From: a bacterium
GTDB lineage: Bacteria > Auribacterota > Auribacteria > Auribacterales > Auribacteraceae
Length of the DNA stretch: 64,000 nt
NCBI GenBank assembly: GCA_018435605.1
Contig: JAHDNF010000004.1
Span: forward strand, 184,542 to 248,541
Reading direction: 5' to 3'
How positions within the stretch are numbered: the stretch's first letter is position 1; each line of letters starts with the position of its first letter. Below, piece after piece: positions 8,913 through 48,924 of this stretch. A program made the position numbers and the translations under genes. Below the pieces are notes generated by a model. It did no database searches, was not told the DNA's origin, and saw only the letters and a list, made by a program, of their open reading frames with translations.

Positions 8913-8938
8913 TCCTGATTAACATAGGAGATGAAATT

Positions 8939-23134: not shown

Positions 23135-25022
23135 TAATATGTTCGACGATATTTACAAACCGCTTGACGAACCGTGCGCGGGTAAAATTGTAATCTGTAC
23201 CGGCACCGGTTGTGTTGCTAGCGGTTCTCTCAAAGTATTGCAGGCGTTTACTGAAGAGATAAGAAAAGCAGGGTTTGACGTCGCTCAAACCTTGCCGGAA
23301 GCAAAAGAATCAACCCGCCCCGATTCAACAGTCAGATTGTCCAAGAGCGGATGTCAGGGGTTTTGTCAGATGGGGCCGCTGGTAACCGTGCTTCCAGAAA
23401 ATATTCTTTATACAAAAGTAAAACCTGAAGACGTGGCGGAAATTGTAACGGAAACACTCTTGAACAAACGGGTAATAGAACGACTGCTCTATAAAGACCC
23501 GGTAACCAAAGAACCGTGTCAAGGACAAAATGAGATTGTTTTCTATAAACGCCAGTCCCGATTCGTGTTGAAAATGTGCGGCGAACTTGACCCGGAAAGT
23601 ATAGACGAATATATTGAACGCGGAGGCTATGACGCCGCCAAAAAAGCCTATTCCGATATGACGCCCGAACAGATTTGCAAAATGATTCTCGAATCAGGGC
23701 TTCGCGGCAGAGGCGGAGGCGGGTTCCCGACCGGACGAAAATGGGAGCTGACCCGTATTCAACCCGGCGATAAGAAGTATGTTATATGCAACGGCGACGA
23801 AGGCGATCCCGGAGCATTCATGGACCGCAGTGTCATGGAAGGAAATCCACACAGCGTGATCGAAGGAATCATGATAGCCGCCCGAGCTGTCGGAGCCGAC
23901 GAGGCGTATATATACGTAAGGATGGAATACCCGCTGGCGGTAAAACGTCTTCGCAAAGCTGTCGAAGCCGCAGAATCCAAGGGTGTTTTAGGTAAAAACG
24001 TTTTAGGATCAGGCAGACAACTTATATGCCACGTAATGGAAGGCGCCGGAGCTTTTGTCTGCGGAGAAGAAACCGCGCTCATATCGTCTATCGAAGGCAA
24101 ACGAGGTATGCCGTCTCCAAAACCGCCGTTTCCCGCCCAAAAGGGTCTGAACGGCAAACCGACTGTCATAAATAACGTGGAAACACTGGCTACAATACCG
24201 TTGATCGTAAATCTCGGCGTCGAAAAATTCCGGAAAATCGGCAACGAAAAGTCGCCCGGAACCAAAACTTTTGCCTTAAGCGGCCACGTGGCCAACACAG
24301 GATTGATCGAGGTGCCCTTAGGCATAACATTGCGGGAAATTATCTATGATATCGGCGGCGGAGTAACCGATAAACACGGCACTATAACCAACGACGGTTT
24401 CAAGATAGTCCAGATCGGCGGCCCTTCCGGCGGGTGTCTGACAGAACAGCACCTTGAACTGTCCCTCGATTTCGATTCGCTCAGGGAAATCGGAGCTATG
24501 ATCGGTTCCGGCGGACTGGTTTTAATGAACAAAAACACTTGTATGGTGAGCGTTGCGCATTACTTCATGCAGTTTACCCAGAATGAATCGTGCGGAAAAT
24601 GCGTGCTGTGCAGAGAAGGTACAAAGCAGATGTTGTACCTGCTTGAAGACATTATGAACGGTCAGGCAACTGCCCAGACATTGGAATTGCTAGAACAACT
24701 CGCCAGAGTCGTACAGAAAGGATCATTGTGCGGATTGGGTAAAACCGCGCCTAACCCTGTATTGTCGACATTGCGTTATTTCAGGGACGAATACGAAGCG
24801 CATGTGTTCGGCAAACGATGTCCGGCAGGCCAGTGTAAAGCTCTGCTTGTACCTGAAATCGATCCTGAAAAATGTAAAGGATGTACGCTATGCGCCAGAA
24901 AATGCCCTGTTGAAGCCATTACCGGCGAACGCGGCAAACCGCATACTATCGATCCTGAAAAATGTATAAAATGCGGCGCATGCGCGGCCGCGTGTAAATT
25001 CTTAGCTGTAACGGGGGTGTAA
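23118..25022 (+). CDS. hydB: HydB (NuoF-like FMN/NADH subunit with N-terminal 2Fe-2S and C-terminal 2x[4Fe-4S] ferredoxin domain)
   Basis: ICTGTGCVASGS, GLRGRGGGGF, ESCGKCVLCREG, CKGCTLCARKCP, CIKCGACAAACK. Overlaps hydC by 17 nt. Confidence 0.85.
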   Translation: MKQALNNMFDDIYKPLDEPCAGKIVICTGTGCVASGSLKVLQAFTEEIRKAGFDVAQTLPEAKESTRPDSTVRLSKSGCQGFCQMGPLVTVLPENILYTKVKPEDVAEIVTETLLNKRVIERLLYKDPVTKEPCQGQNEIVFYKRQSRFVLKMCGELDPESIDEYIERGGYDAAKKAYSDMTPEQICKMILESGLRGRGGGGFPTGRKWELTRIQPGDKKYVICNGDEGDPGAFMDRSVMEGNPHSVIEGIMIAARAVGADEAYIYVRMEYPLAVKRLRKAVEAAESKGVLGKNVLGSGRQLICHVMEGAGAFVCGEETALISSIEGKRGMPSPKPPFPAQKGLNGKPTVINNVETLATIPLIVNLGVEKFRKIGNEKSPGTKTFALSGHVANTGLIEVPLGITLREIIYDIGGGVTDKHGTITNDGFKIVQIGGPSGGCLTEQHLELSLDFDSLREIGAMIGSGGLVLMNKNTCMVSVAHYFMQFTQNESCGKCVLCREGTKQMLYLLEDIMNGQATAQTLELLEQLARVVQKGSLCGLGKTAPNPVLSTLRYFRDEYEAHVFGKRCPAGQCKALLVPEIDPEKCKGCTLCARKCPVEAITGERGKPHTIDPEKCIKCGACAAACKFLAVTGV

Positions 25023-25023
25023 C

Positions 25024-27033
25024 ATGAACAAAAAAGCCTTTATATATGTGGATGGAATTAAAGCTCCTATCAACGGTGAACGGAACCTGCTCGAAGTTAT
25101 AAGAAAAGCGAACATAGATATACCGACGTTCTGTTACCATTCCGAATTGAGCGTTTACGGCGCATGCAGAATGTGCATGGTCGATGTGGAAGGGCAGGGA
25201 TTGATGGCATCGTGTTCCGTTGCCCCTCAACCGGATATGAAAGTCAAAACCAATACGGCGGAGATACGGGAACTGCGTAAAATAGCGGTGGAACTCCTGC
25301 TTGCCAACCACGAGAAAAGTTGCCCGACCTGTAAACGAAGCGCTACTTGTAAACTGCAGGATTTAGGCAGAAAACTAGGTATTGACAAAGTTCGCTTTAA
25401 ACCGATCAACAAACAACAACCGCTCGAAGACGCATCCCAAGTACTGGTTCGCGACCCTAACAAATGTATACTATGCGGTGACTGTGTCCGCATGTGCGCC
25501 GAGGTTCAGGGAATTGGCGCAATTGATTTTGCCTATAGGGGACACGACGTGGCGGTATTACCGGCATTCGGCAAAAGTCTTGATAAAGTGGAATGTGTGT
25601 TCTGCGGACAGTGCGCTCGCGTATGCCCGACCGGAGCTTTGACCGCAAAGTCACACGTCCAAGAAGTCTGGAAAGCGCTCGACGATAAAAATAAAAAAGT
25701 GGTAGTTCAAATTGCGCCGGCAGTACGTGTAGCAATAGGCGAAATGTTCGGTAAAGAACCGGGAACCGTCAGTACCGGACAGATAGTCTCAGCATTAAAA
25801 ATACTCGGTTTTGACAGGGTCTACGATACGTGTTTTGCCGCAGACCTTACCGTTATCGAGGAAGGTAGCGAATTCATACGGCGTGTAACGCAAGACGGCG
25901 CTCTGCCTCAGTTTACATCGTGTTGCCCGGGATGGGTGAAATTTGTCGAACAATATTATCCGGAGTATCTTGATAATTTGTCCACATGCCGCTCTCCCCA
26001 ACAGATGTTCGGCTCGCTGGCTAAAAAAATATTGCCTGACGATTTGAATGTCGCGCCGAAAGATTTGGTTGTGGTATCTATCATGCCGTGTACAGCCAAA
26101 AAATTCGAAGCGGCAAGACCGGAATTTCTACGGGACGAAATACCTGACGTGGATTATGTCTTAACCACACAGGAACTGGGACAAATGATCGAATCTAGCG
26201 GCATCAATTTCGTCAATCTGCAACCGGAATCGCTCGATTTACCGTTAGGATTCAAAACCGGCGCAGGGGTCATTTTCGGCAACACCGGAGGAGTCAGTGA
26301 AGCAGTCCTGCGGTTTTTGAATGAAAAACTTACAGGCAACACACAAGATAACTTCGAGTTTACTGAGGTACGTGGAACAGAGGGAATCCGTGAAGCCCAA
26401 GTTACTTTCGACGGCAAAACATACAGTCTGGCAGTCGTGCACGGACTGGGCAACGCTCGTAAACTGATAGAAAATATAAAAAACGGATCATGCCGCTATG
26501 ACCTTATCGAAGTCATGTCTTGCCCGGGCGGTTGTATAGGCGGGGCAGGCCAGCCGATTTCCTTCGATTCCGATACCAGAGAAAAACGTACAAAGGCTCT
26601 GTATGAAGCGGATAAAATGCTTCAGCTACATAAATCGCAGGAAAATCCATATATTAAAAAATGTTACGATACACATTTGGGCGAAGTCGGCGGCGCTGTA
26701 GCCCATCATCTTTTGCATACCCATTACAAGAGCAGAAAACGCATACACGACGCTGACCTGTCGCTCATGGCGTCCAAAGAAGCCCAACAACTGGAAATCA
26801 GAGTCTGCGTAGGAACCAGCTGTTATCTGCGCGGTTCACAGGATTTGTTACACGCGCTACTTTGCGATATCCATCACAGCGATCTAAAAGACAAGGTGGA
26901 CGTCAAGGCTACATTCTGCTTTGAAAAATGCTCGCAGGGGCCGGTTGTGCGAATCGGCGACAAACTGGTTACTTCAGCTACATTAGAAAAAGTCAAAGAG
27001 GAAATCGAATCGCAGTTGCGTAAACGACAATAA
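25024..27033 (+). CDS. hydA: HydA catalytic [FeFe]-hydrogenase with a fused C-terminal NuoE-like thioredoxin-fold [2Fe-2S] domain (Thermotoga HydA-like architecture)
   Basis: L1 FTSCCPGW, L2 MPCTAKKFE, L3 EVMSCPGGCIGGAGQP. C-terminal ~100 aa with CVGTSCYLRGS ... CFEKCSQGP. Confidence 0.9.
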   Translation: MNKKAFIYVDGIKAPINGERNLLEVIRKANIDIPTFCYHSELSVYGACRMCMVDVEGQGLMASCSVAPQPDMKVKTNTAEIRELRKIAVELLLANHEKSCPTCKRSATCKLQDLGRKLGIDKVRFKPINKQQPLEDASQVLVRDPNKCILCGDCVRMCAEVQGIGAIDFAYRGHDVAVLPAFGKSLDKVECVFCGQCARVCPTGALTAKSHVQEVWKALDDKNKKVVVQIAPAVRVAIGEMFGKEPGTVSTGQIVSALKILGFDRVYDTCFAADLTVIEEGSEFIRRVTQDGALPQFTSCCPGWVKFVEQYYPEYLDNLSTCRSPQQMFGSLAKKILPDDLNVAPKDLVVVSIMPCTAKKFEAARPEFLRDEIPDVDYVLTTQELGQMIESSGINFVNLQPESLDLPLGFKTGAGVIFGNTGGVSEAVLRFLNEKLTGNTQDNFEFTEVRGTEGIREAQVTFDGKTYSLAVVHGLGNARKLIENIKNGSCRYDLIEVMSCPGGCIGGAGQPISFDSDTREKRTKALYEADKMLQLHKSQENPYIKKCYDTHLGEVGGAVAHHLLHTHYKSRKRIHDADLSLMASKEAQQLEIRVCVGTSCYLRGSQDLLHALLCDIHHSDLKDKVDVKATFCFEKCSQGPVVRIGDKLVTSATLEKVKEEIESQLRKRQ

Positions 27034-27047
27034 CCGGAGGCATACCG

Positions 27048-28778
27048 ATGAATAACAGCCAGCCCAATCAGATCGTATATACCAACAACGCCCGGTGCAG
27101 AGATTGTTACCGGTGTATACGGGTATGTCCGGTCAAGGCAATTCAGATAAAAAACGGCCAGGCTTTCGTTGACCCGCAGAGGTGTATTGTATGCGGAACA
27201 TGCATCAGGGAATGCCCGCAAGGCGCTAAGACTTATAGGCACGACATAGAACAAGCCGCCACACTGGCGGCGCAACGCACTGTCGCAGTAAGCATAGCGC
27301 CGTCTTATGCCGCTGTTTTTCCCGACTGGCAACGCAAAAGGCTGGCTTCCGCTTTGAGAAAGCTGGGGTTTGATTATATTGCCGAAACGGCGATAGGCGC
27401 GTACCTGTCCGCGAAAAAAACAGTAGAATACACCTCAGCCAAGTGCGATATGCCGCATATTTGCACAGCTTGTCCTGCGGTGGTCAATTACGTCGAAAAA
27501 TATAACGACAATTACATTAATCTGCTTGTTCCGGCTGTATCGCCCATGGTCGCTCACGCTAAATTTTTAAAAGAAAAATACGGGAAAAATACAGCAGTAG
27601 TTTTTATAGGGCCGTGCGTGGCAAAAAAAGCCGAAGCGCAACGCGACGAGTATTCATCGCTAATCGATTGCGTATTAACCTTTGAGGAACTGTTTATATG
27701 GTTTGAACAGGCGGGCATCAATCTTAAAACATGCGAAGAAAGCGATTTCGACGACTATCCTCCCGCTGAGGCGCGATATTATTCTATAGAAGGAGGATGG
27801 CTGAAAACCGCCGGTTGCGGCAGTGACCGCTTTGACTCCATGTACCTGTGCGTAAGCGGATTTGAGTCGGTAGAAGAATCACTGAAAACCGTTGCCGAAC
27901 TGGAAAAACCGTGTATAGTCGAACCGCTGTTCTGCCCGCACGGATGCATCAACGGACCGGGAATTCATACTCAAGGCAACCTGTTTACCCGGCGCACAGC
28001 AATTATAGAACACGCCGGAGAAAATAAACCGGAGCGTATAAATAAAACTCCGGAAACTCAAGCCGATTTGACAACATCGTTTATAAAACGGTCTTCGGAT
28101 ATTCTCAAAAATGTTTCCCAAGATAAAGTCAGGGAAGTACTTGAAAAGACCGGTAAACTAAACGAGGCCGATCAACTCAACTGCGGCGCATGCGGATATC
28201 CGACATGCCGACAGCAGGCTATAGCCGTTGTGCAGGGCATGGCTGAAATAGATATGTGTATACCTTTCATGCGCCGCCTTGCCGAACAACGGTCAGACCG
28301 GATAATAGAAACCAGCCCGAACGGCATGGTCATTGTAGACGAGGACTTGCGCATCCTTACCATGAATCCGGCATTCAGGAAAATGTTCCTGTGCTCGGAA
28401 AATATTTTCGGCAAAAATATTTCACGGCTCATGGACCCTGAACATTTCATAAAAGTTATCTCAGGCAAAGAAGAAACAGTTACCGCCGTGGTATATCATC
28501 AACGATACGGCCTTATTTGCCATCAGGTGTTTTATATGCTCAAAGACGAACGCCAGATTGTGGGCATCTTTCTTGACATCACCAAAAGCCATACCGATCA
28601 TAAGCGCCTCGAAGAACTTAAAGCAAAAACCATTTTGCAGGCTCGGGAACTGTATGAACATCAAATCGGAATGGCAAGCGAATTTGCCAGATTTCTCGGC
28701 GAGTATACAGCCAAAGGGGAAAAACTGATCGATAACCTCATGCAGTTGAACGATAACCCGCAAGAGGGCGTAGATTGA
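27048..28778 (+). CDS. hydS: Sensory-type [FeFe]-hydrogenase (HydS/HfsB-like, group C): 2x[4Fe-4S] N-term, modified H-cluster domain, Cx2Cx4Cx16C cluster, C-terminal PAS domain
   Basis: CRDCYRCIRVCP and CIVCGTCIRECP. L1 is altered to CTACPAV (canonical TSCCPxW). L2 GPCVAKKAE. L3 EPLFCPHGCINGPG. Also CGACGYPTC-x16-C, and a PAS-like C-terminus (IIETSPNGMVIVDEDLRILTMNPAFRKMF). Confidence 0.75.
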   Translation: MNNSQPNQIVYTNNARCRDCYRCIRVCPVKAIQIKNGQAFVDPQRCIVCGTCIRECPQGAKTYRHDIEQAATLAAQRTVAVSIAPSYAAVFPDWQRKRLASALRKLGFDYIAETAIGAYLSAKKTVEYTSAKCDMPHICTACPAVVNYVEKYNDNYINLLVPAVSPMVAHAKFLKEKYGKNTAVVFIGPCVAKKAEAQRDEYSSLIDCVLTFEELFIWFEQAGINLKTCEESDFDDYPPAEARYYSIEGGWLKTAGCGSDRFDSMYLCVSGFESVEESLKTVAELEKPCIVEPLFCPHGCINGPGIHTQGNLFTRRTAIIEHAGENKPERINKTPETQADLTTSFIKRSSDILKNVSQDKVREVLEKTGKLNEADQLNCGACGYPTCRQQAIAVVQGMAEIDMCIPFMRRLAEQRSDRIIETSPNGMVIVDEDLRILTMNPAFRKMFLCSENIFGKNISRLMDPEHFIKVISGKEETVTAVVYHQRYGLICHQVFYMLKDERQIVGIFLDITKSHTDHKRLEELKAKTILQARELYEHQIGMASEFARFLGEYTAKGEKLIDNLMQLNDNPQEGVD

Positions 28779-29932
28779 TCATGATGAAAAACTCTTTTGT
28801 CGATATCTACTATAAACAATCTTCAAAAAGACCCGGCGACCCGTGCGGCGATGTGGTTGTATATAAGCGGGACGCCTACCACACCACAATTCTGCTGGTC
28901 GACGGCATCGGTTCGGGTATCAAAGCTCATATTGCCGCAACAATGAACTCGGCTCGTATCATGCAAATGCTTGCGGACGGGTTTTCTGTTCGCGACGTTT
29001 TTTCCCATATGGTAAAAACCATGAACGAATGGCGCAACTACGACAAACCGTTTTCAGCATTCACCCTTACACGCATTATGCACGACGGCACAGCAACAAT
29101 GCTCTCATACGAGGCTCCGGTACCGTTACTGCTAGGCGCTCGCGAAGCGTATGTGCTTCCCGCACAAACGTTGACTATCGGTGAAGCATTGGTCAGCGAA
29201 ATAGATTATCACCTAAGGCACGGCGAGGGCGTCGTACTGGTTTCAGACGGTATAACCCAAGCAGGAATAGGCAACGGACTTCCCAGAGGCTGGACTATCG
29301 AAGGCGTCAACGGATTTGTCAACCGCCTTGTTTCCCGCTCAACACCAACGGAAGATATCCCAGATCAAATTATTCAAGAGGCTTTTGTGATTGACGGATC
29401 TACATTCAACGACGATTGTACTGTAATAGCCGCCCCGTTTCGACACGGGCATGTGGTTACCATATTAACCGGACCTCCCGAATCACCCGCCGACGATGAA
29501 AAATCAATCGCAATGTTTCTTGAAAACAAAGGCACTAAAATCGTATGCGGGTCAACAACCGCTAATATTGTCGCAAGACACCTCAATACCGAGGTGCGGG
29601 TAGAGCATAACCGCAGGAATACAGGGACACCTCCGCAATATTTCATTGACGGGATCGATCTGGTAACAGAAGGAGCGATTACCCTTAATCAACTGCATAA
29701 TATCCTCGACGAAGATTTGCTCAACACAGCCGAACGAAGCGCTGTTTTCGATCTGTGGCAACAAATAATGGAATCCGACCGGATTCAGTTCATGGTAGGA
29801 AAAAAAATCAACTCTGCCAGCGACGATATAATATGGCGCAAACAAGGTATTTTACCGCGTATCCGCATTGTCAACCTGCTGGCAAAAAAACTCGAATCCA
29901 TGGGCAAACTGGTTACCATAACCTACGTATAA
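28775..29932 (+). CDS. PP2C-family (SpoIIE/RsbU-like) serine phosphatase with an uncharacterised C-terminal domain, translationally coupled to hydS
   Basis: GDVVVY...TTILLVDGIGSGIKAHIAA and VVLVSDGITQAG match PPM/SpoIIE metal-binding motifs. ATGA overlap with the hydS stop. Confidence 0.6.
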   Translation: MIMMKNSFVDIYYKQSSKRPGDPCGDVVVYKRDAYHTTILLVDGIGSGIKAHIAATMNSARIMQMLADGFSVRDVFSHMVKTMNEWRNYDKPFSAFTLTRIMHDGTATMLSYEAPVPLLLGAREAYVLPAQTLTIGEALVSEIDYHLRHGEGVVLVSDGITQAGIGNGLPRGWTIEGVNGFVNRLVSRSTPTEDIPDQIIQEAFVIDGSTFNDDCTVIAAPFRHGHVVTILTGPPESPADDEKSIAMFLENKGTKIVCGSTTANIVARHLNTEVRVEHNRRNTGTPPQYFIDGIDLVTEGAITLNQLHNILDEDLLNTAERSAVFDLWQQIMESDRIQFMVGKKINSASDDIIWRKQGILPRIRIVNLLAKKLESMGKLVTITYV

Positions 29933-30184
29933 TACTTGCTGTAGCCTAAATGAATTAAGCCTGCATCGAACTGCTAACTTCCAATCCTTTTATCTTTTCA
30001 GAATTTTATCAAACAATAACTGGTACGGATTTTGTATAATCAAGGTATTTGAATTTATTGTTTTACGGGGAAAGACGGTTTGTGTAATTTTTACACACTA
30101 TGACGACGATTTATTTCATAAATACAACACTAAAGAGACATCTGTTACCAACGGATAATCCGAATCATGACAGGAGGAACACCC

Positions 30185-30796
30185 ATGAGCGAAAGACCGC
30201 CATTTTTTAAACGCAAATACATTGTGAACAAAGAATTACAGTTCCACATATCTATTGTCATGATTATGGAAATTCTTCTCATGGCAATTGTTATGAGTAC
30301 AATTATCGTATGCCTGAACAATTACTATCAAGAGATATTTCAGTATATCGCAGGTACTACCGAGTTGCAGACTCCATTGCGGGAAATAAATAAACCGATA
30401 TGGCTGTTTATGCTGGGTAGTGTAAGTTTTAGTGTGTTTGTTTTTGCTCTGGTAGGTATTTTTTTGTCTCACAAAATCGCCGGCCCTTTATACCGCATGA
30501 AACGTATAATGATTGATATCGGTAAAGGAAAATTGCCCCGTGAAATACGGTTTCGCAAAGGCGACCATATGCATGACATGGCTGACGCCCTAAATGAAAT
30601 GGTGCTTGGATTGCAAAACCGCGACAAAACGACTCTTGAGGCTATAAATAAAATAGAACGCATTGTTAACGAGTTAGCCAAAGCACTTGCCGATTCAAAT
30701 CAGACTAAAAAACGCGATGAGTCCATTCAGCAACATCTTGGAGAATTGAATAGACTGATTGAAACGGAAAAAATCAAACACCCGGAAATAGCGTAA
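30185..30796 (+). CDS. Small membrane protein with two TM helices and a HAMP domain, no output domain
   Basis: Two hydrophobic segments, then IAGPLYRMKRIMIDIGKGKLPREIRFRKGDHMHDMADALNEMVLGL (HAMP pattern). AGGAGG RBS before the ATG at 30185. Confidence 0.5.
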   Translation: MSERPPFFKRKYIVNKELQFHISIVMIMEILLMAIVMSTIIVCLNNYYQEIFQYIAGTTELQTPLREINKPIWLFMLGSVSFSVFVFALVGIFLSHKIAGPLYRMKRIMIDIGKGKLPREIRFRKGDHMHDMADALNEMVLGLQNRDKTTLEAINKIERIVNELAKALADSNQTKKRDESIQQHLGELNRLIETEKIKHPEIA

Positions 30797-30807
30797 GGAG
30801 TTGATCC

Positions 30808-32502
30808 GTGAAAATTTCACCGCATCGTGAACTGAAGTCTAACAATATCGGATTCACTTTGCTTGAGCTGGTTGTAGTGGTAGCTGTATTAATGGTTGTT
30901 CTCTCAATTATAATCGCCGCTTCGCGTGAACTCAAGTATCATTCCAATCTTGCGTTTTGTATGAATAATCTGCGGCAGATTTCCCTTGCAATGGTAACCT
31001 ATCATAACGATCATAACGACTATCCGTACGGCTTGCCTTACGATACTTTGAGCAACCAATTGAGCAGATATTTATCCAGCGACAAGATATTTGTCTGCCC
31101 GCAGGATGATTACGAATCCGTAGACAGTTACAGCCAATTTTATTGTTATCCCGGTCAAGATGCTGATGGTAGCAAATATGTTGTGGGATGCCCTCGCCAT
31201 AAACGCGGCAGTCTGTGCGCCGCGGTTTTGGGTTTTCAGACGGCTTACATGACAAAATCGGCTAAAGTGACGGTGGATAATGTGGCTATTCGCACAGGTT
31301 GCGCTACTTCTGGCACAATGAATCTGGAAGACGGAACTACGATCAGTTCGAACGACATAGAGATGCACCTCGTGCAGTCGTTTCGCATGGCGGACGGATC
31401 TCTGTATACTATAATTCGCGTTCCTGAAGGAGAAACAGGTTCTTTGACTGTCAACGCTACCGAAGGAACGCAACTGGAGATTGTTACTCCTTCGCTTATA
31501 GCGGCTATTCGCGGAACTGCGTTTACAGTCGAGGTACAGTATGATAACGATTTACCTCTATCCAGTATATATGTTCATGACGGAATGGTTGAAGTACAAC
31601 CCATAAACGGTTTGCGCAGGGTTGATAACGAATTCGTAGCGGCAGGCAAACGGGGCATGCACCTACGCCCCGGTGAATCGGTACAGATATATACTGAACC
31701 TCAGAAAATAAATATATCTGCGCTCAATACCAGAGTTGAAGCTTTGCAGGCTAAAATCCGCCGCGGTCTTGCGAGCGGAAAAGATATGAACCCTGAAATA
31801 GGTATGATCAAATGGCTAATGTCTTTCAGCAGTACTCCGGTATCTTTGGATTTTCCATCCGCAAAACCGGTCTATGATTTTTCCGGATCATATAATTCGG
31901 TAGCCGAAGCGCGGCAAGGGGCAATGAATGCGGTTCAAGGCATAAACAACGAAATGGATAATACAAGAACGGCTAAAAACTTCATTAAAAATATTGCCAA
32001 CGAAGCGGAAAAAACATTAGGCGCTATTGTCAGGGATGCTGACACGTCGCAGAAACAATTAAATAAAGTGGTGGATGATTTATCCAAAAATAAACTCAGC
32101 AAAGCTATGGAATCCGCTCAAGCCGCTCAGGATGCCGCTATCGCCGCAGAACAGAAGGCTATTTTGATCAATCAACAGCTTCAGGCCGCTCAGCAAGCTA
32201 AGATAAATGCTGATAATGCCGTGGCCAGAGCGCAAGAATTAGCCGGCCATGCGGAAACCGCCGCTAACCAAGCCGCGGTGCTCGCTCAAGGCAACCCAAC
32301 TGAAACCGGAAACGCACAACAGGCTAGAGTCTTAGCGGAAAAAGCTGTGAATGAAGTCCAAAAAGCTATACAGGAAGCGAATCAGTCGGCTATAGATTTA
32401 TATAACATAATGCAGGCGCTACAAACTGCCAATGAAACCGCGGGATCCGCACGGTCATCGGCAAATCAGGCAAATCAACTGATCAGTCAGCACGGCAATT
32501 GA
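30808..32502 (+). CDS. Prepilin-type N-terminal cleavage/methylation-domain protein (DUF1559-like N-terminal region) with a long C-terminal Ala/Gln-rich coiled coil
   Basis: Class-III signal N-IGFTLLELVVVVAVLMVV (G-1, F+1, E+5). CMNNLRQISLAMVTYHNDH resembles the CxNNLKQIGLA..YH block of PVC-type DUF1559/H-X9-DG proteins. C-terminus has QAAQDAAIAAEQKAILINQQLQAAQQAK... repeats. GTG start with AAGGAG RBS. Confidence 0.5.
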   Translation: MKISPHRELKSNNIGFTLLELVVVVAVLMVVLSIIIAASRELKYHSNLAFCMNNLRQISLAMVTYHNDHNDYPYGLPYDTLSNQLSRYLSSDKIFVCPQDDYESVDSYSQFYCYPGQDADGSKYVVGCPRHKRGSLCAAVLGFQTAYMTKSAKVTVDNVAIRTGCATSGTMNLEDGTTISSNDIEMHLVQSFRMADGSLYTIIRVPEGETGSLTVNATEGTQLEIVTPSLIAAIRGTAFTVEVQYDNDLPLSSIYVHDGMVEVQPINGLRRVDNEFVAAGKRGMHLRPGESVQIYTEPQKINISALNTRVEALQAKIRRGLASGKDMNPEIGMIKWLMSFSSTPVSLDFPSAKPVYDFSGSYNSVAEARQGAMNAVQGINNEMDNTRTAKNFIKNIANEAEKTLGAIVRDADTSQKQLNKVVDDLSKNKLSKAMESAQAAQDAAIAAEQKAILINQQLQAAQQAKINADNAVARAQELAGHAETAANQAAVLAQGNPTETGNAQQARVLAEKAVNEVQKAIQEANQSAIDLYNIMQALQTANETAGSARSSANQANQLISQHGN

Positions 32503-32540: not shown

Positions 32541-34232
32541 TCATTCGGAAGTGTTACGCTGAATTTTCGCCCATGTATCTTTCAAAGAAACGGCTCTATT
32601 GAATACGAGTTTGCCGTTTTTTGAGTCCGGATCAATAGTAAAATACCCGTGCCGCAGAAATTGCAGGCTAGTTCTCGCAGGCATTTCCATTAAACCCGGT
32701 TCTACCTTGCTGTCCGCAATTATTTCCAGAGAATTCGGGTTGAGGTTAGACAAAAAGTCCTTGCCTTCCTCTGCGTCTTCAGGATTCGGCTTGTTGAACA
32801 GATTCTCGTATATGCGCACTTCCGCGTCAACTGCATGGTCAACGGATACCCAATGGAGAGTTCCTTTGACTTTTCTTCCGTCTTGGGACCATCCGCCTTT
32901 GGTTGCCGGATCATAAGAACATAACAATTCCACAGGCTGTCCGCTGGAATCTTTGAGGACTTCATCACAGGTAATATAATATGCGTGCTTCAAGCGAACC
33001 TCAGCGCCAGGCGACAAACGGAAATACTTTTTAGGCGGGTTTTCCATGAAGTCGTCCTGCTCGATATAAATTACCCGCGAAAATGGAATCATACGCACAC
33101 CCATTGACTCGTCTTCAGGATTGTTTAGAGCTTCAAGTTGCTCAACTTTTCCTTCAGGATAATTTGTGATGGTAACTTTCAAAGGACGCAAAACAGCCAT
33201 AGCGCGCGGCGCTCGTTTATTCAAGTCTTCACGCAAACAATATTCAAGAAGCGCAAGATCAACTGTGCTTTCGCTCTTGCCCACACCGATCATTTCGCAG
33301 AATGTTCTGATCGCTTCAGGGGTATATCCGCGCCTGCGCAATCCGGCAATAGTAGGCATTCGAGGGTCATCCCATCCACTGACAATATTTTCTTTGACCA
33401 ACCGCAAGAGCTTGCGTTTGCTCATTACAGTATATGTCAGATTAAGACGGGCAAACTCAATTTGCTGTGGATGAAATACGTTGAGTTTTTCCAGAAACCA
33501 GTCGTATAAGGGACGGTGATCTTCAAATTCCAATGTACAAATGGAATGGGTTATTTTCTCAATGGAGTCTTCAAGCCCGTGCGCAAAATCGTACATCGGA
33601 TAAATGCACCATTTATCACCTGTACGGTGATGCGATGCTTTTAAAATACGGTATACGGCAGGATCTCGCATATTTATATTGGGAGATGCCATATCTATTT
33701 TTGCGCGAAGGATGCATTCGCCTTCCTCAAAATCCCCGTTTTTCATTTTCTCGAATAACGCAAGGTTTTCTTCTATTGTCCTGTCTCGATAGGGACTAGG
33801 CTTACCCGGCTGGGTTAGAGTACCGCGGTACTCTCGTATCTGATCTGCGGTAAGGTGATCCACGTAAGCCAAACCGTCTTTAATAAGCTGTAGCGCCGCC
33901 TGATAGAACTGTTCGAAATAATCGGAGGCAAAATACAGCCGGTCTTCCCAATCAAAACCCAGCCACCGCACGTCTTCTTTTATGGATTCGACATATTCGA
34001 GTTCTTCTTTAACAGGGTTGGTGTCGTCAAACCGCAGATTACACAACCCGTTGAATTCTTTGGCAATACCGAAATTAAGGCATATCGATTTTGCGTGGCC
34101 TATATGCAAATAACCATTCGGTTCGGGTGGGAACCGGGTATGTACTCTTGAGCCGTTTTTATTATCTTCCAGATCTTTTTTTATTATTTCTTTGATAAAG
34201 TGGGAAACCGGCTGAGTTTTTTCCTCTGACAT
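32541..34232 (-). CDS. glnS: Glutaminyl-tRNA synthetase
   Basis: HIGH motif ([13 protein letters not shown]) and KMSKS-like VMSKRK. Size 563 aa. Confidence 0.9.
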
Positions 34233-34372: not shown

Positions 34373-36199
34373 CTAATTGAGAGTAAGGAACTTATTTTTC
34401 GCCTTAATCTGACGGGCGATATCGGAAATATTTTTGCGGATATACGTAACTTTATGAGCAGGCCCGTTTTCGTTTTCTGTCATCAAACCGTGCTCGACTA
34501 TTTCAACAAACTCATTTATTTTCGATTCCTGTAATGGATACGGATGCTCCGCCCAGAATTTAAGGTGTTCCATCTCGTACCTGCCCATCTTTTCAGAACC
34601 GTCAGCCGGACACAAAGGACGGGGGTTAACAGCCAACTGATAACCTTTAAGCGCCATAATCAGCGGCTGGTAATTGTGTTCCACATACAAACGGGCAAAC
34701 AGGTATTCCACCACAGTGGTTTTGTGCTGTCGTTCCCTATCCTGACAATGTATATTTTCAAGACTGAACCTCACGAAACCGTATTCATCTACGATTTCAC
34801 GGTTAAAAATGCGCTTTTCTCGCAAAATCTGATGCGTATCATACCCCAAATCACCGCCAAGCAACAATAAACAGATTAAATGATCTATATCGTTCTGGCG
34901 CGTAAACTGTACCTTCTCAGCCGCCTGAATGGATATATGCAAGCTGTGCGGACGAATACCGGTAAACCTAGTCGCTTCATTTATCAAGCGGTCTAAAATC
35001 CATGGATCAAGAGTTACCGGCTTCGACAAATCCTCGAAAATTTTACTGCGTCCGAACGCATACTCCAAAAAACCGAATGAACGTTCTTTGAGAGGATCAG
35101 GAAAATGATGGTCGTCTATGTGTCCGCCAATTTTCCACATCCTGCCGGTAAAATCGAAATCATGAAAGTAATGAAAATAGTTGTATACAGAATCAAACGG
35201 GCGCTCTTTTTCAACGGCAAACCGTCCGCCGGTACTGAATTCCACCTCCGCACCCAGAGGAATCACACCGGGATGGCGGTTTTTCTTAACCCACTCGACT
35301 TTCCGCTCTATCGATTCTTTATCATATATGGTATCCGCTATTTTTATTGCTTTATGCGCATAATCGACGTATTCCCATGAATCATTGAACGTATCCGCCT
35401 TATATTGTTTCATCAGCTGTGCAACCTCGTCCGAGCGCTCATTTACAACTGTAAGAGCGATCATTATCGAGATGGTATATGCGTAAAACTCGTGTTCCAC
35501 CTTAACCCGTCCGGTAAAATCGAATCTGATACGATCTTCTATCTGATTGAATATCATGTGTTTAACCGCAAACGATATATAGTTGTCGGCATACGCCAGT
35601 ATCGCAGGGTTGTTGCGGATAGGTTTAAGGGTAGGCAACTCCTTCTTTGCAAGATTTTTTGACAAATATTCCAGCGAAAGATTGCGGTGTTCTATGTGAG
35701 AACGCACCAGATCCTCGAAATCGGATCCAAGTAGCTCTTTCTTTATCCGCTGATATTCCGACGCCTTAAGAACATCCTGATCTTTTAAAGAATCCTGCAT
35801 CATCAGCTCGTTGACTTTGCTTGCGACATATTTTTCAATACGGTCTTCTATGTCGGTACCGGGTAAAAAATATTTTTTAATGGATTTAACATTGCCGATA
35901 TACACTTCGCATTCAACAGGACGAGTATTGCCTTCGGTATAAACCTTAACCGTGCGCCGCCAGTACAAATCGCCTTCAGCTTCGTACTTATCCATTTTAA
36001 GCATTGACTCGGCATCGACGTCATACAAAATATAACCGTCGACAAATTCGCCGAAATACGGAATAATAAACGGAAAGCAGGCTCTGGAAGTTACTTTACG
36101 ATAGTTTTTAAGGACAGCTTTTTCACTGCGGAACGTGTGGGACGTGACTATTTTTTGATTTTGTTCGCTGATTAACGTACCATATACAAATAAATTCAT
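34373..36199 (-). CDS. Fusion protein: N-terminal gamma-glutamyl cyclotransferase-like (GGCT/AIG2) domain plus ~480-aa uncharacterised C-terminal domain
   Basis: MNLFVYGTLISEQ... YGTL motif and ~110-aa GGCT-like region. The remainder has no motif I recognise. Confidence 0.45.
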   Translation of the reverse strand: MNLFVYGTLISEQNQKIVTSHTFRSEKAVLKNYRKVTSRACFPFIIPYFGEFVDGYILYDVDAESMLKMDKYEAEGDLYWRRTVKVYTEGNTRPVECEVYIGNVKSIKKYFLPGTDIEDRIEKYVASKVNELMMQDSLKDQDVLKASEYQRIKKELLGSDFEDLVRSHIEHRNLSLEYLSKNLAKKELPTLKPIRNNPAILAYADNYISFAVKHMIFNQIEDRIRFDFTGRVKVEHEFYAYTISIMIALTVVNERSDEVAQLMKQYKADTFNDSWEYVDYAHKAIKIADTIYDKESIERKVEWVKKNRHPGVIPLGAEVEFSTGGRFAVEKERPFDSVYNYFHYFHDFDFTGRMWKIGGHIDDHHFPDPLKERSFGFLEYAFGRSKIFEDLSKPVTLDPWILDRLINEATRFTGIRPHSLHISIQAAEKVQFTRQNDIDHLICLLLLGGDLGYDTHQILREKRIFNREIVDEYGFVRFSLENIHCQDRERQHKTTVVEYLFARLYVEHNYQPLIMALKGYQLAVNPRPLCPADGSEKMGRYEMEHLKFWAEHPYPLQESKINEFVEIVEHGLMTENENGPAHKVTYIRKNISDIARQIKAKNKFLTLN

Positions 36200-36255: not shown

Positions 36256-36771
36256 TCAGTATTTTATTATCGAATAAAGAGGATATGGATTAAGGGTCTT
36301 ACGGCCTTTGAGAAACTCCAGTTCCACTACGACAGCAATATCAACCAACTCCGCCCCCTGCGACGCTACCAATTCGGCACAAGCGCGCAATGTCCCTCCT
36401 GTAGCAATCAAATCGTCTACCAACAGGACACGGTCGTTCTTTTTTACTGCATCCACATGCATTTCTATAATGTCGGTACCGTATTCCAGATCATAGGTTT
36501 TCTGAATTGTTTTATACGGCAATTTACCCTTTTTACGAATCGGTATAAACCCGGCCTTCAACTGCACCGCCAACGCCGCTCCGATAATAAACCCGCGCGA
36601 TTCTATTCCCACCACATAATCAATCTTACTTTGCTTGTACTGCTCAAATAAAATACGGTTTACCTCCGCAAAAGTCTGAGGATTTTTAAGCAGTGGCGTA
36701 ATATCCTTAAAAACAATGCCTTTTTTAGGAAAATCTTTTATGTCTCGAATATATTTAGTCAAGACAGACAT
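36256..36771 (-). CDS. apt: Adenine phosphoribosyltransferase
   Basis: KDITPLL, VGIESRGFIIGAALA, LLVDDLIATGGTLRA PRPP-binding motif. Confidence 0.85.
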   Translation of the reverse strand: MSVLTKYIRDIKDFPKKGIVFKDITPLLKNPQTFAEVNRILFEQYKQSKIDYVVGIESRGFIIGAALAVQLKAGFIPIRKKGKLPYKTIQKTYDLEYGTDIIEMHVDAVKKNDRVLLVDDLIATGGTLRACAELVASQGAELVDIAVVVELEFLKGRKTLNPYPLYSIIKY

Positions 36772-40839: not shown

Positions 40840-42774
40840 TCACTTCACTTCTTCATAGTCTGCGTCAATATAATCGTCGCTGTGACCTGCAGGCTCGTTT
40901 TCAGTTTTCTGAGATGTTTGCTCTGCTCCGGCGGTATGGGTTTGATACGCTCCCGCAGACGCTCCCTGTTGCGTGCCTGCCCTCTTGTAAAGTTTAGTAG
41001 ATACTTCCTGCCATGTTTGCTGAAGCGCGTTCATAGCAGGTTCGATCGCCGATGAATTACGCTCTTTGACCGCTTTTTCGAGGTCGTTTTTTAGTGATTC
41101 AAGTTTAGATCGGTCGGCAGGATCGATCTTATCACCGTTTTCTCTGAGCAGTTTATCCGTCTCGAAAGTCAATTGTTCCGCGCGGTTGATTTTATCCACG
41201 GTTTCTCGTTGCTGTTTATCTTCATGAGCGTACTGCTCTGCTTCTTTAACCATCCGGTCGATATCTGTTTTACTAAGTCCGCTTGACGCTTCGATACGGA
41301 TGGATTGTTCTTTTCCTGTGGCTTTATCTTTGGCGGATACATGCAGTATACCGTTTGCGTCAATATCAAACGTGACTTCGATCTGCGGTATTCCACGCGG
41401 CGCGGGCGGGATATCGGTCAACTGAAACCGCCCGATAGATTTGTTATACGCGGCCATTTCTCTTTCGCCTTGCAAAACATGTATATCCACAGCGGTCTGA
41501 TTATCCGCGGCAGTCGAGAATACTTCCGATTTTTTTGTCGGTATCGTTGTGTTTCGCTCAATTAGTTTAGTAAACACTCCGCCCTTGGTTTCCACACCAA
41601 GCGACAGCGGTGTAACGTCGAGCAGTAAGACATCTTTGACCGCGCCGGACAACACACCGCCCTGAATACTCGCGCCAATGGCAACAACTTCGTCGGGGTT
41701 GACTCCTTTATGCGGTTCCTTGCCGAACAATTCTTTGACAATCTGCTGAACAGCAGGCATACGTGTCTGTCCGCCGACGAGTATCACTTCGTCAATATCG
41801 CTTGCCGACAATTTGGCGTCCTGCATAGCCTGAATACAAGGCTTCTTTGTACGTTCAAGCAAACCGGATACAAGCTGTTCGAGTTTCGAGCGTGTGAGAG
41901 TAATATTGAGATGTTTCGGGCCGCTGGAATCGGCAGTGACAAACGGCAGATTAATTTCCGTAGACATTGACGAAGACAGCTCGCATTTGGCTTTTTCAGC
42001 GGCTTCTTTGAGTCTCTGTAGCGCCATCTGGTCTTTGCGAAGGTCTATTCCGTTATCCTTCGTAAATTCTTCCGCAAGATAGTTGATTATAGCATCGTCG
42101 AAATTGTCGCCTCCCAGATGCGTATCTCCGTTGGTAGACAATACCTCGAAAACACCCTCTCCCAACTGTAATATGGAAATATCGAAAGTTCCTCCGCCAA
42201 GGTCGAAAACCGCTATTTTCTCGTCATTCTTCTTATCCAAGCCGTACGCCAGAGCGGCGGCAGTCGGTTCGTTAATGATTCGCAACACATCAAGACCGGC
42301 TATCGCGCCCGCTTCTTTTGTCGCCTGCCTCTGTGCGTCGTTGAAATACGCCGGAACGGTAATTACCGCCTGCGTTACTTTGCTACCCAGATAATCTTCG
42401 GCGGTTTGCTTCATTTTCTGCAAAATCATAGCGGATATTTCCTGCGGTGTGTAATGCTTGCCTTCCAGCTCTACGACCGCGTTACCGGCCTTGTCGGCTT
42501 TTACTTTATAGGAAACCGATTTCTCTTCTTCTTTAACTTCCGTATACTTCCTGCCCATAAACCGCTTTATGGACATTATAGTATTGCCGGCGTTGGTTAT
42601 TGCCTGCCGTTTAGCCACAGTTCCCACAAGCCGTTCGCCGTTTTTAGTAACCGCCACGACCGACGGGGTAGTGCGCCCTCCTTCAGCATTGGTTAGCACC
42701 ACAGGTTCTCCGCCTTCCATCACAGATACACATGAGTTGGTAGTACCCAAGTCTATTCCGATTACTTTACCCAT
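40840..42774 (-). CDS. dnaK: Chaperone DnaK (Hsp70), copy 1, not in a grpE/dnaJ operon
   Basis: [30 protein letters not shown] signatures. Confidence 0.9.
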
Positions 42775-46641: not shown

Positions 46642-48924
46642 TTACTGAATAATTTTAAGTACGATGAATGTCAGGTCGTCGTCAAGAGGCTGGTGTCCGA
46701 TGTATTCATGCAGATACCAAAACAATATGGAACTGATTTCCTGCGCGGATTTGTCTTTGTTTTCGCGAATCACCTGCTGAATTCTATGCATACCGAGAAA
46801 TTCTTTCTGATTGTTTGTCGCTTCGGTTAACCCGTCGGTGTAAAACAGATAGATATCGCCTTTTTGTAACGGTATAACTATTTCGCCGTAGTCCGTTTTT
46901 TCAAATAAACTCAGGAATAACCCGTCGGTAGTGATAGCTATAAACTCATCCTCTTGAGCGCAGTACCGCATTGAAGGATTATGACCGGCGCTGGTATAGT
47001 GAAGCATTCGTTCTCTTGTATTTACAATGGCGTAAAGCATTGAAACAAAATTATTTCGTGGAATGTTTTTGAAAAGGAATGCGTTGAGCGCTTGAACAAC
47101 TTCTTTGGTAGAAACGATGCCGATTGACGAAAGCTGTGCACAGGTCTTTACCAGCGTCATAATAAATGCCGCAGATACTCCGTGACCGGTAACGTCAGCG
47201 ACGATAAATCCGGTATTATCGGCATCAATGGAAATGTAATCGTAATAATCGCCGCCTATCATTTCCGCAGGGGTATACATTGACGCTACTTCAAAAACTT
47301 CGCTTTCAGGCGGTTCTTTGGGTAAAAGTTCCATCTGCATTTCCATAGCTATTTTCATATCAGCCTCCAGTTTAGTTTTCTGGATAGTCTGCTGATACAA
47401 AGTAGCGTTTTCGATAGCTACGGTGGCCATACTGGCAAGGGTTGTAAGAGCTACGATGTCGTCCGGACTGAAACTATCGCAAAAAAGTTTATTGATGACC
47501 ATCATCGTTCCTATAACACTGGTTGCCGTTTTGAACGGGATACAAGCAAGGGCGTTAATGTTTAGATTGCGATCTTTGAGAATATCGCGGTCGAGTTGCT
47601 CGTCTACTTCCTGCTGATTCAGAATAACTACTTCGCCGGACTCAAGCACTCTCTGGTAGATCGGTTTGCCTCCGTTATCCTTGAAACGGATAGCCTTGAT
47701 TACCTCAAATCCGAGACCGAACTCGATTTTTTTTGAAATCTCGCCGTTTTCCAGCAGTAAAGCGGCGCCCACTTCCGCTCCAATAGAATTGATGATCATG
47801 TCGACCAGTGTCGCCAGCAGGCGGTTGGGGTCATGGATGGTGGTGAGAAGTTTGCCTGCTTCGTAAAACTTATGAAGTTGAACTGTGCGGTCTTCTATTT
47901 TTCTGTCCAGTTCGGCGTTGGAATGGATGATTTGGTTCTGTATTTCTTCCAGCTCTGCGCTTAGTTTTATTATCTTTCCGGTCATTCGAATATTATCGAT
48001 TATAGTGGTCAGCAAATCGTTGAGCGAGATAATCAAATCCTGCTCAAATGCTGAAAACGGTTCTCCGGTTTTCCGGCTAACTATCAAAGCGCCTATATAG
48101 TTGTTCTTTGAATAGAGCTTTTTTATAATTACCGTTTCGCGCGAAGGTTCGTCCTGTTCAACCGCATTTCCCGCATGCTTGTGACAGAAAAACGACAGTT
48201 TCAGCTTAGAGTAGTTGAATTCACAGGTTTTTTGAACGCTACACATGATATGTTCGATAAACACATCATCCGCATTGGATGTTCTGTCTATAAGCAGTTC
48301 TTTTGAGTCTGCCATATATATGGCCAGTATATCATAAGGTATTGTAGCCCCGAGTAGCTTGAATATCTGTTCTATAAGCTCGTCAGGATTTTCGATATTG
48401 TTGGCGTGTTTGTTGATGAGATTAATAACGTTTTTCTCAAGCAGTTTGTATTCTAGTATTCTGCTGATACGCTTGAGAATATCAATTTCCGACAATCGTT
48501 TTCCGTCGCGATATGCCGGAGACAACTGGGGGTTGCGTTTTTGAACCTGCTCATGGATAATTGACAACAGGGCGAACTGGTCGATATCCCTGCTTATTAC
48601 TTCATCGATCTCAAATTGGCTTTCCGTGCGGTGTGAATGGGAATTGTTTTCAGGTTCAATCCAAAGAAGCCTGATATGGCGTGTCGCGGAATCGAACTTT
48701 AAAATCCTGCAGGTTTCCTCGCCGGTAAGCTGGGGCAATTGCGGGTCAATAATTACAATATCCGGCCAATGCGAATAAATACACCTCAGTACATCTATGC
48801 CGTCATGAGCTATAACTACATCGTAACCGAATAGATTCAAGTTATGCCTGTAGCGCTTGATCAGTTTTTCATCCGTCATAGCGATCAAAATTTTAGATTT
48901 TTTGATCTCTGGTAAACAGCTCAA
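46642..48924 (-). CDS. Response-regulator receiver - GAF - PP2C (SpoIIE/RsbU-like) phosphatase
   Basis: N-terminal REC-like domain (ILIAMTDE ... IVIIDPQLP), central GAF-like regions, C-terminal GGDYYDYI ... ADVTGHGVSAAF ... FYTDGLTEA PPM motifs. Confidence 0.7.
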   Translation of the reverse strand: MSCLPEIKKSKILIAMTDEKLIKRYRHNLNLFGYDVVIAHDGIDVLRCIYSHWPDIVIIDPQLPQLTGEETCRILKFDSATRHIRLLWIEPENNSHSHRTESQFEIDEVISRDIDQFALLSIIHEQVQKRNPQLSPAYRDGKRLSEIDILKRISRILEYKLLEKNVINLINKHANNIENPDELIEQIFKLLGATIPYDILAIYMADSKELLIDRTSNADDVFIEHIMCSVQKTCEFNYSKLKLSFFCHKHAGNAVEQDEPSRETVIIKKLYSKNNYIGALIVSRKTGEPFSAFEQDLIISLNDLLTTIIDNIRMTGKIIKLSAELEEIQNQIIHSNAELDRKIEDRTVQLHKFYEAGKLLTTIHDPNRLLATLVDMIINSIGAEVGAALLLENGEISKKIEFGLGFEVIKAIRFKDNGGKPIYQRVLESGEVVILNQQEVDEQLDRDILKDRNLNINALACIPFKTATSVIGTMMVINKLFCDSFSPDDIVALTTLASMATVAIENATLYQQTIQKTKLEADMKIAMEMQMELLPKEPPESEVFEVASMYTPAEMIGGDYYDYISIDADNTGFIVADVTGHGVSAAFIMTLVKTCAQLSSIGIVSTKEVVQALNAFLFKNIPRNNFVSMLYAIVNTRERMLHYTSAGHNPSMRYCAQEDEFIAITTDGLFLSLFEKTDYGEIVIPLQKGDIYLFYTDGLTEATNNQKEFLGMHRIQQVIRENKDKSAQEISSILFWYLHEYIGHQPLDDDLTFIVLKIIQ

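Follow-up and report, generated by a model that had tools for sequence, protein, structure and literature searches.

What does a protein do that begins as a small gamma-glutamyl cyclotransferase and then continues for several hundred residues that match no sequence model? The question arises in a 64,000 nt stretch of Auribacteraceae DNA (the window, which is the whole stretch analysed; contig JAHDNF010000004.1), where an open reading frame (ORF) at positions 34373..36199 of the minus strand begins with ATG and encodes a protein of 608 amino acids (aa). In a high-confidence structure model, the C-terminal region falls within the glutamine synthetase (GS)-fold carboxylate-amine ligase superfamily, i.e., the fold of GS, gamma-glutamylcysteine ligase (gamma-GCL) and PafA/Dop. 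There is strong Rosetta-stone evidence that the GGACT (cyclotransferase) and ligase-like modules are evolutionarily coupled, either fused or as adjacent genes, and form a functional module.

A conserved two-part protein

Homologue matches reach E = 0 and include a deposited Candidatus Auribacterota protein with 100% identity, so the ORF represents a true gene and did not arise by chance. The 101 homologue clusters are nearly all 600–650 aa in length, have the same architecture and cover the query over its full length. The two-part architecture is a family trait and not an assembly accident. The complete ORF consists of a GGACT domain, a helical domain, a GS-fold ligase core and C-terminal helices. 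An earlier note, made from the sequence, had proposed a 608-aa protein at this position, which the ORF list of the window and the conserved full-length homologues support. The GC content and skew of the gene are ordinary when compared with the surroundings. Positions of protein features given below are window positions on the minus strand.

The N-terminal domain (aa 1–110, positions 35870..36199) is a GGACT/AIG2-like gamma-glutamylamine cyclotransferase domain. Pfam PF06094 (GGACT) matches aa 3–104 with 61 bits (gathering cutoff 22.8) and E = 2.2e-16, and it is matched by 71 of the 72 aligned family sequences. PF13772, which represents the GGCT/ChaC branch, scores merely 14.9 bits on the protein; the domain is therefore placed in the gamma-glutamyl-amine branch. 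With the family profile, the PDB yields Arabidopsis AIG2-like structures (E = 1e-17) and, with weaker matches, E. coli YtfP and mammalian GGACT. Structure comparison of the model shows a GGCT beta-barrel fold. The earlier note had assigned a GGCT/AIG2/BtrG-like fold to the first ~110 aa. Both the profile score and the structural test agree with this, and the N-terminus lies above the profile threshold and not below it.

The homologue alignment confirms both sequence features that had been pointed out in this domain, i.e., YGTL and a conserved acidic residue. YGTL, a substrate-binding motif, is at aa 6–9 (36173..36184, coordinates checked by translation). All 69 non-gap sequences have Y6 and G7, and positions 8 (T/S) and 9 (L/M) are conserved, i.e., YG[TS]L. 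E73 (35981..35983), in a D-x-[YF]-E motif, is the predicted catalytic Glu and is aligned with the Glu of LDDFE in mouse GGACT (1vkb). A Glu immediately follows the aromatic residue Y/F72 in 71/71 members if one 2-residue indel variant is allowed; the Planctomycetota-type sequences have a loop that is two residues shorter. Judged by its residues, the N-terminal domain looks catalytically competent.

Fold and active-site motifs of the C-terminal region

Residues ~110–608 have no Pfam, NCBIfam or PDB sequence-model match. The region has no Pfam match in any of the 72 aligned homologues, including to GCS2/YbdK, GshA and Gln-synt_C, and no PHROG or PADLOC match. In the PDB, neither the single sequence (phmmer) nor three different family profiles produce a match to it, and the profile searches do not retrieve the Dop/PafA entries 4b0t, 4bjr and 9cku. 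A hidden Markov model search of 1.84 billion representative proteins yields 134 matches, all of which are family members, and no bridge to a known family. Alignment of the family with hhalign gives probabilities of 0.5% to E. coli GshA and 3.5% to YbdK, and a non-significant 0.25% to a PafA/Dop alignment. At this probability the path of the last alignment, which pairs GAEVEFS with GIETEFG, HIDDH with LYLDVGS and FLEYA with HPEYA, is not used as evidence. A pairing by eye of CLLLLGGD with the PafA strand HVIVGD was dropped, as the segment is helical in the model, and P0101, a 796-aa 'homologue', was discarded as an over-called high-GC ORF.

The fold becomes recognizable in an AlphaFold2 model that was built from the 72-sequence alignment. 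The model of the 608-aa protein has a predicted local distance difference test (pLDDT) score of 92.5 and a predicted template modelling (pTM) score of 0.90, and the arrangement of its domains is fixed and confident. It displays four parts: the GGACT barrel (aa 1–110), a helical domain (aa ~117–307), a beta-rich core with helices (aa 315–525) and a C-terminal helical bundle (aa 540–607). The middle domain (aa 111–307, 35279..35869) is all-helical in the AlphaFold2 secondary structure. It holds the conserved helix YADxYxxxAVxHxxFNQxE, in which Y207, N218 and E221 are conserved, and homologues without a GGACT domain (stand-alone forms, see below) have a weakly homologous helical region ahead of the ligase core. 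The GS-fold carboxylate-amine-ligase-like core (aa 308–530, 34610..35278) shows the curved beta-sheet of the GS fold with flanking helices. The C-terminal bundle (aa 531–608 and the stop codon, 34373..34609) has helices at 540–551, 558–573 and 584–607, with W549, F564 and G571 conserved. Three profile searches bring up 6njv 'Xcc_CTR' for aa 540–607 of this bundle (34376–34579) at E 0.6–1.4, which is non-significant and probably compositional.

In structure comparison the C-terminal region is closest to Dop (structure-match figure 12.7), followed by PafA (12.1), GshAB (12.1) and the YbdK-like 1tt4 (11.6). Lower figures are found for several glutamine synthetases (8.5–9.5), GshA (9.0–9.1), plant and yeast GCL (8.4–8.8) and GmaS (8.5). 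Foldseek comparison with viral structures (BFVD) shows nothing significant, with a phage amidoligase at rank 16 (E = 0.38). The superfamily placement is made on structural grounds. No assignment to the Pup-ligase, GCS2, GshA, GS or Amidoligase_2 family is made, because the profile-profile alignment is non-significant. The earlier note had described the last ~480 aa as having no assignable motif; this holds true in the sequence databases but not at the level of fold, where the structure model resembles the GS-fold superfamily. A match of the region to a characterised family, which the same note had named as grounds for refutation, is found for the superfamily and fold and not for a family.

Five features have been described for the carboxylate-amine ligase superfamily: core strand 1 bears GhExE, which marks ligases within the GS fold; strands 2 and 3 carry acidic residues; strand 4 has [HD]x[NH]; strand 6 has Ex[RK]x2D ([QH]x4D in PafA); and Arg is found in and before strand 5 (PMC2588565). 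Strand numbers used here follow the order of strands in the AlphaFold2 model and are not from a residue-level superposition, and conservation is counted over 71 sequences. Strand 1 (aa 315–321) contains GAEVE (35240..35254), which conforms to GhExE. G316, E318 and E320 are invariant (71/71) in the context P-L-G316-A-E318-h-E320-F-S, and also in the stand-alone subgroup. Strand 2 (aa 359–362) is in the segment WKIGGHIDDH (aa 355–364, 35108..35137), where W355, G358, D362 and H364 are each found in 71/71 sequences and the family pattern is W-K-L-G-G-H-V-D362-x-H364. Strand 3 (aa 377–381) has GFLEY (aa 376–380, 35060..35074; family pattern G-F-L-E379-Y-A), with G376 and F377 in 71/71 and E379 in 70/71. 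The superfamily features GhExE on strand 1 and acidic residues on strand 2 (D362) and strand 3 (E379) are thus present. The stretch GGHIDDHHFPD, listed earlier as His-rich, is indeed found at aa 358–368. It corresponds to strand 2, a predicted conserved active-site strand of this fold, with the invariant D362 and H364.

The remaining strands depart from the superfamily patterns. Strand 4 (aa 417–425) begins with PHSLH (aa 417–421, 34937..34951) and reads P-H418-S419-L-H421-x-S423, with H418 and S419 in 71/71 and H421 in 70/71. This places two His at i and i+3, and SxH or HxS at i and i+2, a variant of [HD]x[NH]. R463 (34811..34813), in the segment ahead of strand 5, is a candidate arginine finger that is present in 71/71 sequences and is invariant in the stand-alone forms too; E468, also ahead of strand 5, is conserved in 70/71. 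Strand 5 itself reads F-S-x-x-N482-x-H484. The candidate position for its Arg, 480, carries Arg in 38/71 sequences; the window protein has Leu there. Strand 6 contains EYLFAR (aa 498–503, 34691..34708) with the pattern V-x-[E/Q]498-[Y/F]-x-F-x-R503-L. Position 498 is E in 63 sequences and Q in 8, and the terminal Asp of the superfamily is replaced by R503, which is invariant (71/71). K518, after strand 6, is also invariant. The genuine PafA/Dop motifs, taken from PDB sequences, are GIETE[FY]G, LY[LV]D..HPEY, CHENY and RLHVI[VI]GD.

Coupling of the two parts and genomic context

The fused form is present in 72 of the 84 loci analysed. There are four stand-alone loci, and the remainder are cut by a contig edge or an N-gap; an apparent split gene in the Coatesbacteria locus L045 is an artefact of a 100-N gap. 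A minor subgroup of homologues, 420–490 aa in length, has no GGACT domain but keeps the core motifs, and its match to the profile begins ~110 residues earlier than in the fusion. Five GGACT-less homologues (P0136, P0164, P0140, P0143 and P0163) have a separate PF06094 gene immediately adjacent, at 5/5 evaluable loci. L099 is left out of this count as its sequence ends too early. The adjacent gene encodes 248 aa and is convergent and overlapping at P0136 (L012), 165 aa and on the same strand 10 bp downstream at P0164 (L013/L014), and 237 aa and convergent at P0140 (L015). At P0143 (L017) it is a convergent methyltransferase-GGACT fusion of 395–409 aa, and at P0163 (L098) a convergent gene of 212 aa that is assigned from precomputed Pfam annotation. 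Four of the five adjacent genes were rescanned and passed PF06094 at 66–75 bits. Orientations and GGACT subtypes vary among the split loci. Because L012 and L098 are syntenic, the loci represent four independent arrangements and not five. The chance of a GGACT gene being adjacent is, by our own estimate, ~1e-3 per locus, with few GGACT genes among thousands per genome. The scarcity of GGACT genes and the repeated pairing therefore make this a Rosetta-stone case for a functional module.

At the two syntenic split loci, a gene for an AMP-forming acetyl-CoA synthetase (L012:364-2232, L098:3135-4997) is separated at its end from the stand-alone ligase-like gene by between a few and ~50 bases, and a cNMP-binding/CBS/DUF294 nucleotidyltransferase gene is found beyond the GGACT gene (L012:4421-5543, L098:8051-9964).

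Relatives are found in 391 of 185,579 species genomes, with one genome per species. The best 80 loci are almost all from metagenome-assembled genomes (MAGs) and belong to Auribacterota, Omnitrophota, Poribacteria, KSB1, Zixibacteria, Moduliflexus/UASB14, many Planctomycetota, Calditrichota, Coatesbacteria, Ignavibacteriales, Acidobacteriota and Spirochaetes. Clustering of the neighbour genes of the 84 loci gives four context classes. The Auribacterota class, which includes the window, consists of ppdK, a sigma factor, apt and the fusion gene.

In the window the fusion gene is between glnS (32541-34232; tRNA-synt_1c, E = 2e-113) and apt (36256-36771; Pribosyltran), as had been reported earlier, and both are on the same strand as the fusion gene. 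A sigma-70 factor gene and ppdK, also on this strand, are further upstream of apt. The adjacency of glnS is unique to the window among the Auribacterota loci compared. As a conserved context glnS is rejected; only the upstream ppdK, sigma factor and apt genes are kept within Auribacterota. A promoter and terminator scan around the gene is uninformative, with a site count not above that of shuffled sequence, and the same scan finds no terminator between apt, the fusion gene and glnS.

The multi-phylum class covers KSB1, Zixibacteria, Moduliflexus, Calditrichota, Coatesbacteria, Ignavibacteriales, Acidobacteriota and Omnitrophota. Directly upstream and on the same strand is a gene for a 459-aa HMGL-family protein (37/84 loci, median gap 28 bp), whose best matches are homocitrate and isopropylmalate synthases, far under their cutoffs. 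Downstream, a gene in 32 loci overlaps the fusion stop codon; its 171-aa helical product matches RsbRD_N weakly. Often after a gene for a TPR/zinc-ribbon protein, there follow genes for an isocitrate dehydrogenase (IDH)-like protein (29 loci) and for aconitase A (1395 bits; 24 loci). A divergent HMGL enzyme beside aconitase and IDH is most simply taken to be a Re-type citrate synthase, in which case the operon would yield 2-oxoglutarate, the precursor of glutamate.

The RsbRD_N-like protein of ~171 aa occurs in several phyla (loci L025-L069, e.g., L030:8917-9432, L005:7922-8410 and L003:7866-8387). This protein, the only small neighbour that recurs, was considered as a Pup-like tag and rejected, as its C-terminus lacks a conserved Gln/Glu and the window encodes no homologue. 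The precomputed Pfam lists of the neighbourhoods contain no proteasome gene.

In the Poribacteria-like MAG class, the order is gpsA, a gene for a 291–298-aa protein, the fusion gene and then argC (TIGR01850, 474 bits) with overlapping stop and start codons. In the Planctomycetota class, the genes upstream encode a large membrane protein and an ArnC-like GT2; downstream are a Nudix gene and a heptosyltransferase gene. The multi-phylum and Poribacteria-like contexts, and loosely glnS in the window, point to a tie of the enzyme to glutamate supply or use. As the Planctomycetota context has no such tie, no single pathway is implied.

At the Planctomycetota loci (L071-L097, e.g., L097:138-2612 and L080:468-1217) the membrane protein is a multi-pass protein of ~830 aa with no Pfam match. 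The flanking ArnC-like GT2, heptosyltransferase and Nudix/NtrR-like genes represent an envelope-glycan context, unlike the tricarboxylic acid (TCA)-branch context of other phyla. A GlnD-type uridylyltransferase gene is near the fusion gene in Zixibacteria (L003), and ADP-ribosylglycohydrolase genes recur near the module (L005 and L013). A role in anti-phage defence was rejected, given the housekeeping context and no PADLOC match.

Possible functions and comparison with known systems

On balance, and with moderate confidence, the protein is taken to be a cytoplasmic bifunctional enzyme that acts on the gamma-glutamyl-amine bond from both sides, i.e., by attachment and release. By the chemistry of its superfamily, the C-terminal domain would bind ATP and Mg2+ and phosphorylate a carboxylate to an acyl-phosphate. 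The carboxylate would most likely be the gamma-carboxylate of glutamate, which is the substrate group in nearly all superfamily members (PMC2588565), and the acyl-phosphate would then be joined to an amine. The N-terminal domain would later free the amine, with the alpha-amino group of the gamma-glutamyl moiety attacking the gamma-amide and 5-oxoproline being expelled. Both halves may thus constitute a gamma-glutamyl attach-and-release module, with the gamma-glutamyl group as a transient tag or a protecting group. A more novel reading, which is quite unlikely, is that the protein reversibly writes and erases a mono-gamma-glutamyl mark. With free glutamate and ATP, the PafA-like half would mark a lysine or other amine on proteins, or a signalling amine, and the GGACT half would erase the mark by cyclising it to 5-oxoproline. 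The classical type of GGACT substrate is epsilon-(gamma-glutamyl)-lysine, and such a system would be a Pup-less, glutamate-only analogue of pupylation and depupylation. It would be built like the make-and-break regulators GlnE, GlnD and SpoT and wired to glutamate/2-oxoglutarate status.

Several observations weigh against an attach-and-release enzyme. The assignment as a ligase comes from the predicted structure, and no sequence method ties the domain to a known ligase family. Three of the five superfamily motif features are altered, i.e., HSxH on strand 4, [EQ]x4R on strand 6 and the strand-5 Arg, which is present in 38/71 sequences and absent in the window protein. The neighbourhoods vary by lineage, e.g., apt in Auribacterota and glycosyltransferases in Planctomycetota, and do not indicate a single pathway. 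If both activities met on one free compound, ATP would be spent futilely on turning glutamate into 5-oxoproline, and an intervening step or regulation must therefore be postulated. Dop, which the structure matches best, has amidase and not ligase activity. It is fairly unlikely that both halves are degradative, in which case a Dop-like C-terminal domain with bound ATP or ADP+Pi as cofactor would act by hydrolysis or deamidation on a gamma-glutamyl (iso)peptide or amide, and the GGACT domain would cyclise the liberated gamma-glutamyl-amine; the protein would then be a salvage enzyme and no ligase.

The altered motif positions, together with the extreme sequence divergence from all catalytic families, would also fit a GS-fold domain that is a non-catalytic ligand-binding or scaffold module, e.g., a glutamate or ATP sensor, that regulates an ordinary GGACT cyclotransferase. 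The RsbRD_N-like helical protein that is translationally coupled in 32 loci is a hint of regulation. This explanation is very unlikely. GhExE and residues D362, H364, E379, H418, S419, H421, R463, E468, R503 and K518 are kept at phylum-level divergence (30–40% identity), as is typical of an active site and not of a scaffold. In the split form, the ligase-like gene persists separately (~470 aa) with the same motifs. An ATP-linked interconversion of glutamate and 5-oxoproline is quite unlikely. The protein would be either a glutamate cyclase or a new 5-oxoprolinase, in which 5-oxoproline would be bound by the GGACT domain and its lactam phosphorylated and opened by the GS-fold domain, with gamma-glutamyl phosphate as intermediate. 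The 5-oxoproline is the product, and hence a ligand, of GGCT-fold enzymes, and it arises from gamma-glutamyl phosphate, the GS/GCL intermediate (bioRxiv 10.1101/2025.10.30.685629). A ligase and a cyclotransferase acting on a free compound net exactly Glu + ATP to 5-oxoproline, and placement in a glutamate-precursor operon suits a glutamate-recovery enzyme. No pxpABC-type domains are found in the gene neighbourhoods examined. However, phosphorylation of a lactam is not known for any GS-fold enzyme, and GGCT-fold domains are known for the cyclisation direction alone. In the cyclase variant the cyclotransferase domain would be superfluous, since gamma-glutamyl phosphate cyclises by itself. If the 5-oxoprolinase variant were true, the family would represent a third, GS-fold class of ATP-dependent 5-oxoprolinase.

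Comparison with known systems shows the attach-and-release logic elsewhere. In butirosin biosynthesis (BtrJ/BtrG) and putrescine catabolism (PuuA/PuuD), an amine is gamma-glutamylated with ATP and the gamma-glutamyl group is later removed. BtrG, which has a GGACT-like fold, removes it by cyclisation to 5-oxoproline, and PuuA has the GS fold in common with the family studied here. BtrJ, in contrast, belongs to the ATP-grasp enzymes and PuuD to the class-I amidotransferase-like hydrolases, and neither pair is fused. The enzymes that modify the intermediates of these pathways are not evident around the fusion family. FluG and NodGS-type proteins consist of an amidohydrolase fused to a GS-like gamma-glutamyl ligase, and an unidentified gamma-glutamylated intermediate has been proposed for them (PMC6478659). 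FluG is similar to the fusion family in having an amide-cleaving domain and a GS-fold gamma-glutamyl ligase domain in a single polypeptide, but its ligase half is a recognizable GS-I homologue, its N-terminal domain is an amidohydrolase and not a cyclotransferase, and the lineage is unrelated.

Dop/PafA (PF03136) has no detectable sequence homology to the family, as no PF03136 match is found in the 72 members at E <= 5. The fusion protein differs from Dop/PafA in the ~190-aa helical domain ahead of the core, in the strand 4 and strand 6 motifs and in the attached GGACT domain, and no Pup-like gene is near the fusion genes. The gamma-glutamylcysteine ligases GshA, GshAB N-domain and YbdK/GCS2 (1tt4, 1v4g, 3ln7, 3nzt) have no sequence-level match to the family either. 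The family shows no sign of a cysteine acceptor, and the partner cyclotransferase is of the GGACT and not the GGCT/ChaC type. The ligase family termed 'new CAL' adjoins AIG2 cyclotransferases in Firmicutes and GAT-like peptidases in Proteobacteria (PMC2588565). Amidoligase/GGCT gene pairs are also seen in prophages. Iyer et al. 2008 described 'new CAL', which presumably corresponds to Amidoligase_2 in Pfam and to phrog_2443, an 'amidoligase' of phages. Like 'new CAL', the fusion family is coupled to an AIG2-family cyclotransferase, which is no proof of membership. The fusion family differs in sequence, with no Pfam or PHROG amidoligase match, and joins both halves in one polypeptide. It is found in housekeeping or TCA-branch operons of uncultured FCB/PVC-type phyla, and 'new CAL' in Firmicutes or phages.

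No description of the family, or of any GGACT/GS-fold fusion, was found in the literature. With its fold taken from the model, the family is rated a new sequence-orphan family of the known GS-fold ligase superfamily. It is the first fused ligase/AIG2-cyclotransferase example found; the earlier examples are neighbouring genes with another ligase family. This provides a fold and testable chemistry for proteins annotated merely as 'gamma-glutamylcyclotransferase' or 'hypothetical', mostly in uncultured phyla including Modulibacteria. As the gene is within a putative 2-oxoglutarate-for-glutamate operon in many phyla, the enzyme may supply a missing step, or act as a control point, when anaerobic candidate phyla metabolise glutamate, gamma-glutamyl compounds or 5-oxoproline. 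If it is true that the ligase half modifies proteins, the module would represent a new prokaryotic post-translational modification system.

Other features of the window are separate from the fusion gene. Two [FeFe]-hydrogenase clusters are present (5796-10708 and 23118-29932). One includes a 1038-aa NuoF-like/GltD-like fusion. In the other, a SpoIIE/PP2C phosphatase comes after a HydS-like sensory hydrogenase (Fe_hyd_lg_C and PAS), and the two are a putative regulatory pair for H2 sensing. SpoIIE/PP2C phosphatases that carry GAF or receiver domains are encoded at three places (28775-29932, 46642-48924 and 57057-58433). An ORF of 1183 aa (104-3655, plus strand) has no Pfam match at E <= 1e-5. 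A 564-aa protein (30808-32502, plus strand) has a prepilin-type N-terminal methylation motif, a DUF1559 head, which is typical of PVC-group bacteria, and a long Ala/Gln-rich C-terminal tail that is probably coiled-coil; a small HAMP-like membrane protein precedes it (30167-30796). Two full-length DnaK/Hsp70 paralogues are encoded within 20 kb (40840-42774, minus strand, and 59417-61363, plus strand), one beside clpB and the other beside dnaJ.

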